This document shows positions 41,165-41,722 of a DNA stretch of 64,000 nt, one piece after another. Under the pieces are notes generated by a model. It had not been told where the DNA came from, did not search any database, and was given only the letters and a program-made list of their open reading frames with translations. The position numbers were made by a program, and so were the translations under genes. Within the stretch, counting starts at the first letter, position 1, and each line of letters begins with the position of its first letter. Source of the stretch: Dehalococcoidia bacterium (GTDB lineage: Bacteria > Chloroflexota > Dehalococcoidia > Bin125); contig CAXXRD010000002.1 of assembly GCA_963663895.2 (NCBI GenBank), positions 544,001 through 608,000 on the forward strand, in the 5' to 3' direction.

Positions 41165-41233
41165 TCAGCGGCCCGGCAATCGGTCGATTAAACGGCGCAC
41201 CCAACGAATCACACCCTCAAGTGCAAGCGGCAT
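41165..41233 (-). CDS. Small amphipathic peptide D, MPLALEGVIRWVRRLIDRLPGR (22 aa)
   Basis: GGAG-ATCGCG-ATG RBS/start; paralog of the three upstream peptides. Confidence 0.7.
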   Translation of the reverse strand: MPLALEGVIRWVRRLIDRLPGR

Positions 41234-41304
41234 CGCGATCTCCAGTCACGCTTTGACCGTCAGCGGCGCTCCTTAGTAAAGCCGGTTAGGTCGAGGGGTT
41301 GGCC

Positions 41305-41382
41305 TTAGCGGCCCAGCACGCGATTGACCACGCTCCCGATCATGCCACGCATGCGGCGGAACATGTCTTTACAACAGGGCAT
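41305..41382 (-). CDS. Small amphipathic peptide C, MPCCKDMFRRMRGMIGSVVNRVLGR (25 aa)
   Basis: GGGGAG RBS; shares the MP start, RGMI and RVLGR-stop. Confidence 0.65.
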   Translation of the reverse strand: MPCCKDMFRRMRGMIGSVVNRVLGR

Positions 41383-41453
41383 CACATTCTCCCCTCATCT
41401 TCCGATCGTCGACGGCCACTCCCCGGTGGAGCGGGCAAGAGCGAACGACCCCT

Positions 41454-41516
41454 TTAGCGGCCCAGCACCCGATCGATCATACCGCGCACCCAGCGAATCA
41501 AACCCTCAAATGGCAT
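41454..41516 (-). CDS. Small amphipathic peptide B, MPFEGLIRWVRGMIDRVLGR (20 aa)
   Basis: GGAG RBS; differs from peptide A by 3 synonymous changes and 1 conservative change. Confidence 0.75.
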   Translation of the reverse strand: MPFEGLIRWVRGMIDRVLGR

Positions 41517-41595
41517 CGCGATCTCCAATCGCCTTCCAACATCACCGATCGCCAGCGGCGCTCCCCGGTGGAGCGAGCGGGATCGAACGACTCCT

Positions 41596-41658
41596 TTAGC
41601 GGCCCAGCAAGCGATCAATCATACCGCGCACCCAGCGAATCAAACCCTCAAACGGCAT
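41596..41658 (-). CDS. Small amphipathic peptide A, MPFEGLIRWVRGMIDRLLGR (20 aa)
   Basis: GGAG RBS; starts 65 bp downstream of the tRNA-His CCA. Confidence 0.75.
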   Translation of the reverse strand: MPFEGLIRWVRGMIDRLLGR

Positions 41659-41722
41659 CGCGATCTCCAATCACCTTACAGTCACGTTCCGATCACTGAC
41701 GGCGCTCTCCAACGGATCGGGT

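Follow-up and report, generated by a model that had tools for sequence, protein, structure and literature searches.

A tandem array of four very short open reading frames (ORFs A-D) lies directly behind a tRNA-His gene in the genome of a Dehalococcoidia bacterium of the phylum Chloroflexota (GenBank assembly GCA_963663895.2, contig CAXXRD010000002.1), within the 64,000-nucleotide stretch that was analysed here (positions 544,001 to 608,000; hereafter the window). At a rough probability of 0.55, the array would be a young, genus-specific family of micropeptides that are made from a tRNA-His-peptide-lipoprotein transcript and act as cationic amphipathic helices at the membrane. The genome holding the window (G000:C2:544001-608000; a 2.37-Mb assembly of 66-67% GC, referred to as G000) was compared with those of two other species of the same genus (G001 and G002). 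The array is a repeat that is conserved in all three species, evolves in the manner of coding DNA, is restricted to this genus among the genomes searched and keeps its place between the tRNA gene and a lipoprotein gene. A preliminary description of the window had reported four ORFs in tandem after tRNA-His, each led by a ribosome-binding site (RBS); this is confirmed, and the array is also present, with all of its signals, in the two further species.

Repeat structure and coding signature of the array

The four repeat units occupy the minus strand 3' of tRNA-His and measure 140-149 bp, with stop-to-stop distances of 142, 149 and 140 nt, and the first unit begins directly past the CCA end of the tRNA on the same strand. 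Tandem Repeats Finder reports the A/B repeat with a period of 142, 91% matches and a score of 448. Every unit is built from a GGAG element, exactly 6 nt, an ATG and an ORF of 20-25 codons, with which the unit ends (coordinates and peptides are given in Table 1). The spacers at 41517-41595, 41383-41453 and 41234-41304 on the minus strand share the block GGAGCGCCGCTGGCGATCGG, which is preceded by a 6-bp hairpin (CGCTCC/GGAGCG) just past each stop codon; the shared block may act in processing or stabilisation, albeit without support from covariation. A regular-expression scan of all six frames found no second locus in the G000 genome.

Across the three species tRNA-His is 98.7-100% identical and the tRNA-to-ORF-A spacer 87.5-95.3% identical, and the whole array retains 93% nucleotide identity in G001 and 84% in G002. 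The ATG, frame and stop are kept in 12/12 ORF copies, and none of the copies in the relatives carries an internal stop, a frameshift or a lost RBS or start codon. As the array is a true repeat with its signals intact in two more species, it is not a product of chance. Indels between orthologs are confined to the spacers (14, 2 and 2 gap columns versus 0 in the ORFs), the A-to-B spacer of G002 having a 12-nt deletion and two 1-nt indels. Between paralogs, the length differences within ORFs (+6, +3 and +12 nt) are all in frame, with ORF C carrying +3 and +12 nt and ORF D +6 nt relative to A/B, whereas spacer differences are not multiples of three. Substitutions exhibit the same phase, with 10, 9 and 25 variable columns at codon positions 1, 2 and 3, respectively, each of 87 (chi-square p=0.004). 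The GGAG, ATG and stop columns are invariant (0/40 variable) compared with 81/271 variable columns in the remainder of the spacers (Fisher p=3e-6), and the linkers between GGAG and ATG vary in 4/24 columns. Between G000 and G002, identity is 67-70% in the spacers before C and D as against 86-91% in the ORFs, whereas the spacers before A and B are conserved as much as the ORFs.

The ratio of non-synonymous to synonymous substitution rates (dN/dS, Nei-Gojobori) of the ORFs is 0.23 for G000-G001, and 0.58 and 0.65 in the comparisons with G002. Their synonymous divergence (dS 0.18-0.22) falls within the range of the lipoprotein gene (0.19-0.33) and the MgtE gene (0.14-0.27), neighbours whose dN/dS is lower than that of the ORFs (0.16-0.20 and 0.03-0.05, respectively). 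The three synonymous changes and one L/V change initially counted between A and B were confirmed, and the proposal that frame-keeping length differences reflect selection on the peptide gains from the in-frame +6/+3/+12 nt steps, the third-position bias and the invariant GGAG, ATG and stop. Taken as a comparative signature, these features make it quite probable that the four ORFs are translated.

The array has a very narrow distribution. Among 65 genomes of the family, a six-frame search with the peptide profile recovers all three members of the genus, at E 1e-6 to 3e-12, and nothing convincing in the other 62, where the best match (E 0.008) contains an in-frame stop. The same search returns G000 and G002, together with three weak matches inside long frames, among 401 genomes of the class, and G000 alone among 401 genomes of the phylum; weak matches elsewhere (E 0.002-0.008) were rejected as lying inside long frames or containing stops. 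An exact two-unit DNA pattern is found in G001 alone among genome contigs, matches only two unrelated tandem repeats in metagenome contigs and is absent from the viral contigs searched, while the 15 viral-contig matches to a looser pattern were discarded, 14 being out of frame and 1 having internal stops. No match was obtained by blastn against phage and plasmid records, nor by a word-based search of 29-95-aa proteins with a 54-aa upstream-extended ORF B. The family, class and phylum sets are samples of those groups and the methods are insensitive for 20-residue queries, so that non-detection does not equal absence; among the genomes searched, the family is confined to one genus and three species-level genomes. 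A metagenome contig (L043, 844-984) holds an unrelated tandem repeat that matched the pattern by chance, part of whose unit appears tRNA-like by eye in reverse complement.

The proposed tRNA-His-lipoprotein transcription unit

Homologues of the lipoprotein gene (57-69% identity) adjoin tRNA-His in 17/17 loci retrieved from genera of the family other than this one. The gap between the CCA end of the tRNA and the lipoprotein start amounts to 13-65 nt in 15 of these loci and to 123 and 275 nt in the remaining two, as opposed to 555-567 nt in this genus. Given the longer gap, the array is, as judged from this comparison of loci, a genus-specific insertion of ~500 nt in an old tRNA-His-lipoprotein unit. 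Gaps of only 13-23 nt, which occur in 4/17 of the loci, lack room for a separate promoter, and the simplest ancestral state is thus one in which the lipoprotein gene was co-transcribed with the tRNA. It is plausible that the ORFs now lie within the tRNA-lipoprotein transcript and are driven from the tRNA promoter, and the lipoprotein gene is likely the last gene of the operon.

The suggestion that a tRNA promoter at 41830-41858 may drive the ORFs is plausible. In its favour, the block TTGACC-17-TAGCCT is kept in G000, G001 and G002, with homology breaking ~95 nt upstream of tRNA-His, and the gaps in sister genera are short in 15/17 loci as given above; against it, the block falls below the threshold of a sigma-70 scan (0 sites), and its function as the tRNA promoter is presumptive. 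A scan of both strands of 40400-42200 for sigma-70-like promoters and intrinsic terminators yielded none but one terminator-like site inside the mgtE end, in agreement with the earlier remark that no terminator separates tRNA-His from the first ORF.

The 64-nt spacer between the tRNA and ORF A has the same length as the tRNA-to-lipoprotein gap of sister genera, which hints that the first micropeptide start may sit at the former lipoprotein start position. An origin of the peptides from the lipoprotein N-terminus is not supported, as the peptides have no similarity to the lipoprotein (first 30 residues or whole; p 0.10-0.66) and the DNA past ORF D has none to the unit spacers (p 0.93-0.99). The first codons of the lipoprotein gene differ between G000 and G001 only by synonymous changes. 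The lipoprotein carries a lipobox followed by a nearly invariant D-x-S-D-D-E-E-R-L-A-A-Q-R-L-F-R-N-Y, and is kept beside tRNA-His in every examined genus of the family (window locus, L002-L020). Since it has no match in Pfam, NCBIfam or the PDB sequences, it is, by these searches, an uncharacterised conserved family. At one other-genus locus (L010, in G033) a different insertion of ~275 nt stands between tRNA-His and the lipoprotein gene, consisting of palindromic CCCTCTCC...GGAGAGGG-type repeats that resemble repetitive extragenic palindromes and are unrelated to the array; given this other insertion at the same spot, the tRNA-lipoprotein leader appears to be a recurrent site of repeat expansion.

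In the mechanism that we propose, the array inserted in the older tRNA-His-lipoprotein unit would be read from the tRNA promoter, and excision of the tRNA would leave a polycistronic message in which the lipoprotein cistron comes after four short ones that each have a GGAG of their own. The lipoprotein gene starts with GTG and a weak RBS in this genus versus ATG in 13/17 other-genus loci, and this weak GTG would probably depend on ribosomes that finish ORF D. The same arrangement invites an explanation in which the ORFs act purely in cis, as translated upstream ORFs that keep ribosomes on a long leader and couple them to the lipoprotein GTG, or stall to regulate it, with peptides that have no job of their own. 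The overlap of the ORF D stop with the AAGG RBS of the lipoprotein gene, 9 nt before the GTG, the change of start codon itself and the position of the array in what is otherwise the lipoprotein leader are all consistent with such a role. Coupling requires ORF D alone, however, whereas all four copies persist and GGAG-6-ATG is perfect in every one of them; the amino-acid sequence is also constrained (dN/dS 0.23 in the closest pair), with M1, P2, R11, R16, G19 and R20 invariant in the 10 aligned peptides. To our knowledge, known arrest peptides act singly. We consider a purely cis-acting role unlikely on this balance.

Peptide properties and comparison with known peptide systems

The predicted peptides A, B, C and D comprise 20, 20, 25 and 22 aa with net charges of +2, +2, +5 and +3, respectively, the recomputed charges being those given originally. 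They contain 4-6 Arg each, spread along their length, and have neither a signal peptide nor a hydrophobic span. The C-terminus follows the pattern R-x-x-G/R-R, an eleventh distinct peptide (G002 copy D) ending in RR. Hydrophobic residues recur at 3-4-3-4 spacing, falling in A at positions 3, 6, 7, 10, 13, 14, 17 and 18. On the Fauchere-Pliska scale (the values of this and of the Eisenberg scale were entered by hand), the peptides taken whole have a helical moment of 0.37-0.53 at 100 degrees (p 0.007-0.042 versus shuffles), and the best 18-residue window has one of 0.55-0.70 (p 0.002-0.014). Proteins starting with Met-Pro lose the initiator Met to methionine aminopeptidase, which leaves an N-terminal Pro. 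The invariant Met-Pro start would thus probably be processed in this way, and the peptides are envisaged to fold as cationic amphipathic helices on the membrane surface, where four isoforms would serve both dosage and variety. Their action may be similar to that of the staphylococcal phenol-soluble modulins of the alpha type (PSM-alpha) or of multi-peptide leaderless bacteriocins, without relatedness to either; membrane activity, signalling and antimicrobial action are each conceivable, and the peptides may be kept in the producer or exported.

PSMs are amphipathic membrane-damaging peptides that are exported by the Pmt ATP-binding cassette (ABC) system, as described in PMC7527219 and PMC9974410. 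The psm-alpha locus and the array have in common four tandem genes for peptides of ~20-25 aa, no signal peptide and an RBS for each gene, which in the present case takes the form GGAG-6 nt-ATG in 12/12 copies; in both, the peptides also combine hydrophobic residues in a 3-4 repeat with basic ones, and at the C-terminus Gly is followed by a basic residue. They differ in that the basic residue here is Arg and not Lys, and that the array stands behind a tRNA gene in Chloroflexota with no exporter found among the 17 flanking ORFs scanned. In addition, the Met-Pro start predicts loss of Met by the textbook rule, whereas PSMs retain formyl-Met. In searches with 10 peptides, NCBIfam gave nothing at E<=10, no bacteriocin family of Pfam was matched at E<=10, and the only Pfam match at that level was to PSMalpha (PF17063), by one of the ten peptides (G002 copy B), with 13 bits against a cutoff of 23 and an E of 0.11. 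The initial view that the family is undescribed accords with the lack of any curated family above threshold.

Several observations weigh against micropeptides that act at the membrane. The third-position GC content of the ORFs (0.66-0.70) is lower than that of neighbouring genes (0.81-0.93), their codon adaptation is weak, and ORFs of 20-25 codons easily stay open at 60-67% GC. The dN/dS of 0.58-0.65 against G002 derives from 12 synonymous and 22 non-synonymous differences, and the constraint on the peptide sequence appears modest. A and B evolve in concert, as W9F, M13I and D15G are found in both G002 copies, and substitution counts are thus not independent; the comparison rests on three genomes and small counts. 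On the Eisenberg scale, in which Arg dominates, the helical moment gives p 0.01-0.27, with p<0.05 in only 2/10 peptides, and the moment peaks nearer 90 degrees, so that the amphipathic helix pattern first described holds on the Fauchere-Pliska scale and is scale-dependent. No transporter, immunity or modification gene occurs among the 17 flanking ORFs scanned, and ABC families are too generic for a genome-wide assignment of a partner. The PSMalpha match is at about chance level over ten queries, although the preliminary description had pointed to this family on other grounds, and no PSM chain in the PDB was matched by phmmer or hmmsearch of PDB sequences. With PSMalpha below threshold and no PSM chain matched in the PDB, membership of PSM-alpha is not established, and the likeness is best read, on this comparison, as convergence of short cationic amphipathic helices. 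Of the resemblance to psm-alpha proposed in the preliminary description, the layout of four tandem RBS-led genes stands, whereas the profile score (13 bits versus 23, in 1/10 peptides) does not carry it further.

A leaderless multi-peptide bacteriocin or cytolysin, exported via an unlinked transporter to kill competitors, would correspond directly in function to aureocin A70, garvicin KS or PSM-alpha. According to PMC6131525, multi-peptide leaderless bacteriocins are sets of 3-4 peptides of 27-34 aa with charges of +2 to +5, among them aureocin A70 with four peptides of 30-31 aa and +4/+5, and their loci adjoin conserved transport or immunity determinants. The array resembles aureocin A70, garvicin KS and the cereucins in encoding 3-4 paralogous cationic leaderless peptides side by side, and its charges lie in the same range; the sub-threshold PSMalpha match also points in this direction. 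On the other hand, the peptides are shorter (20-25 aa), no sequence match to the bacteriocins was found in the Pfam and NCBIfam searches at E<=10, and neither an ABC transporter nor an immunity gene is present among the 17 flanking ORFs, unlike the loci covered in PMC6131525. Constitutive drive from a tRNA promoter would moreover be odd for a toxin. We regard a bacteriocin as improbable.

Returning to a micropeptide family at the membrane, its most far-reaching form is tentative and, taken as a whole, rather doubtful: a micropeptide gene born or captured in the tRNA-lipoprotein leader would have been amplified to four copies and expressed at the strength of a tRNA promoter, giving a PSM-like membrane-active cocktail. 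If true, this would be rare phenol-soluble-modulin-type biology outside Firmicutes, with protein genes as punctuated cistrons of a tRNA operon; a listing-level literature search for phenol-soluble modulin and Chloroflexi returned no article whose title or abstract contains either term. Should the peptides be produced, the locus would offer a datable recent origin of a micropeptide gene with tandem amplification, a tRNA promoter that drives protein cistrons and a candidate set of membrane-active peptides in Chloroflexota. It provides a clean comparative case, with the ancestral tRNA-His-lipoprotein adjacency in 17 sister-genus loci set against four derived micropeptide cistrons. Gene callers miss genes of such size, and families like these micropeptides go unseen as a result. 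The reach is limited to one genus and three uncultured species-level genomes.

RNA-level readings and the wider locus

In layout, the nearest precedent is the tyrT/tyrV locus of E. coli K-12, in which a 178-bp unit is present in 3.1 copies, starting 19 nt inside the tRNA-Tyr 3' end, and holds the small RNA RttR together with tpr, a basic, Arg-rich ORF of 29 aa. Both loci display 3-4 copies of a 140-180-bp repeat that directly adjoin the 3' end of a tRNA gene, lie on its strand and contain a small Arg-rich ORF. The product discussed for tyrT-rtT in the passage on it in bioRxiv 10.1101/2024.07.17.603846 is RNA. In E. coli the repeat overlaps the tRNA by 19 nt and an ORF is annotated in one unit only, whereas here every unit has an ORF that evolves like coding sequence, it is doubtful whether the repeat overlaps the tRNA, and no Rfam family is matched within the array.

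By analogy, the array could be a non-coding tRNA-linked repeat that is processed to small RNAs, its ORFs being incidental. Besides the shared layout, the conserved block and small hairpin common to the spacers, together with the ORF-like conservation of the spacers before A and B, are what such a repeat would lead one to expect. The A-to-B spacer also bears a weak likeness to the T-arm and acceptor end of tRNA-His (local alignment p=0.03), although the other 4 spacers do not (p 0.26-0.99) and the p values derive from mononucleotide shuffles only; with significance in 1/5 spacers, a tRNA-derived start of the unit is weak as a candidate. Within the array, Rfam 15 yields no family when 38000-44000 is scanned at E<=1, its matches in that region being the two tRNAs and a sub-threshold Plastid-ycf2 5'UTR match antisense to tRNA-Arg (24.6 bits versus a gathering cutoff of 65.7, E 0.098). 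The RNA that spans 586 nt between the tRNA end and the lipoprotein start has a folding z-score of +1.79, 98/100 shuffles being at least as stable. For the 12 units, RNAalifold arrives at a covariation term of -0.17 kcal/mol, with one partly covarying helix that pairs two CGATCG palindromes. The array as a structured RNA was rejected on this stability and this covariation term. The third-position bias, in-frame paralog indels and invariant GGAG, ATG and stop likewise argue against incidental ORFs, and a non-coding repeat of the rtT type appears to us as improbable as a bacteriocin.

On the opposite strand, open stretches of 90-175 aa occur, the longest of which vary in length and frame between genomes. 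Two antisense frames are excluded because the position-3 excess of the sense frame would land on their position 2 or 1, and the third, of matching phase, is shut by a TAG opposite each TAA-ending unit (A-C). An antisense gene was accordingly rejected, the longest frames not being kept between genomes and the substitution phase fitting the sense frame only. These open stretches, which reflect only the scarcity of stops on that strand, could also be invoked for tandem type I toxin-antitoxin-like modules, in which small toxic membrane peptides are each held under an antisense RNA; tandem repetition is common among type I toxin loci, whose peptides measure 18-35 aa. The array has neither a membrane-spanning hydrophobic peptide, its 4-6 Arg being spread along each peptide with no hydrophobic span, nor a structured mRNA that hides the RBS, the message being less structured than shuffles with a variable, unpaired-looking linker after every GGAG. 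As no promoter or terminator was detected on either strand of the array and a toxin would not be expected behind a tRNA promoter, modules of this type are very improbable.

Table 1. Positions in the window of the array and of the features that adjoin it
Feature	Position	Strand	Remarks
Promoter-like block TTGACC (41858-41853) + 17 nt + TAGCCT (41835-41830)	41830..41858	(-)	~30 nt upstream of tRNA-His
tRNA-His (GTG), genomically encoded G-1 (41800), CCA end	41723..41800	(-)	ARAGORN 41723-41799; Rfam RF00005 57.3 bits
tRNA-to-ORF-A spacer, 64 nt; GGAG 41668-41665; shared spacer block 41689-41719	41659..41722	(-)	Repeat family D4
Micropeptide ORF A, 20 aa, MPFEGLIRWVRGMIDRLLGR	41596..41658	(-)	Profile E 7.4e-12; intact in G001, G002
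A-to-B spacer: small hairpin CGCTCC-ACCG(G)-GGAGCG, shared block GGAGCGCCGCTGGCGATCGG, GGAG RBS	41517..41595	(-)	
Micropeptide ORF B, 20 aa, MPFEGLIRWVRGMIDRVLGR	41454..41516	(-)	Profile E 3.2e-12
Micropeptide ORF C, 25 aa, MPCCKDMFRRMRGMIGSVVNRVLGR; ATG start, GTG one codon upstream	41305..41382	(-)	Profile E 1.4e-10
Micropeptide ORF D, 22 aa, MPLALEGVIRWVRRLIDRLPGR; TGA stop overlaps AAGG RBS of lipoprotein gene	41165..41233	(-)	Profile E 3.3e-11
Lipoprotein gene, 187 aa, lipobox LLVAC, GTG start 9 nt past ORF D stop	40592..41155	(-)	

The genes flanking the array encode the lipoprotein, MgtE, a CxxCxxCC protein, ribosomal protein S21, an amidohydrolase, an AIR-synthase-like protein, AAA and VWA proteins, a K+ channel, a STAND NTPase, IS1595 and a methylase-Mrr fusion. 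The gene of the MgtE magnesium transporter (39223-40569, plus strand) is convergent and ends 23 nt from the lipoprotein stop. Upstream of tRNA-His, an island on the plus strand that is G000's own (41976-46378) carries a 656-aa STAND/AAA_16 NTPase, which is without a match at the G001 or G002 locus, an IS1595 transposase and a 495-aa protein in which an N6/N4 DNA methylase is joined to a nuclease domain of the Mrr type; the IS1595-family transposase is split into two overlapping ORFs, a zinc-ribbon part (44000-44494) and a DDE part (44394-44894). Finally, the CxxCxxCC (YkgJ-type) gene (38320-39020, minus strand) has its start within tRNA-Arg(TCG), 6 nt from the 3' end of the tRNA, and may be this genome's second instance of a protein gene that is expressed as part of a tRNA transcript.

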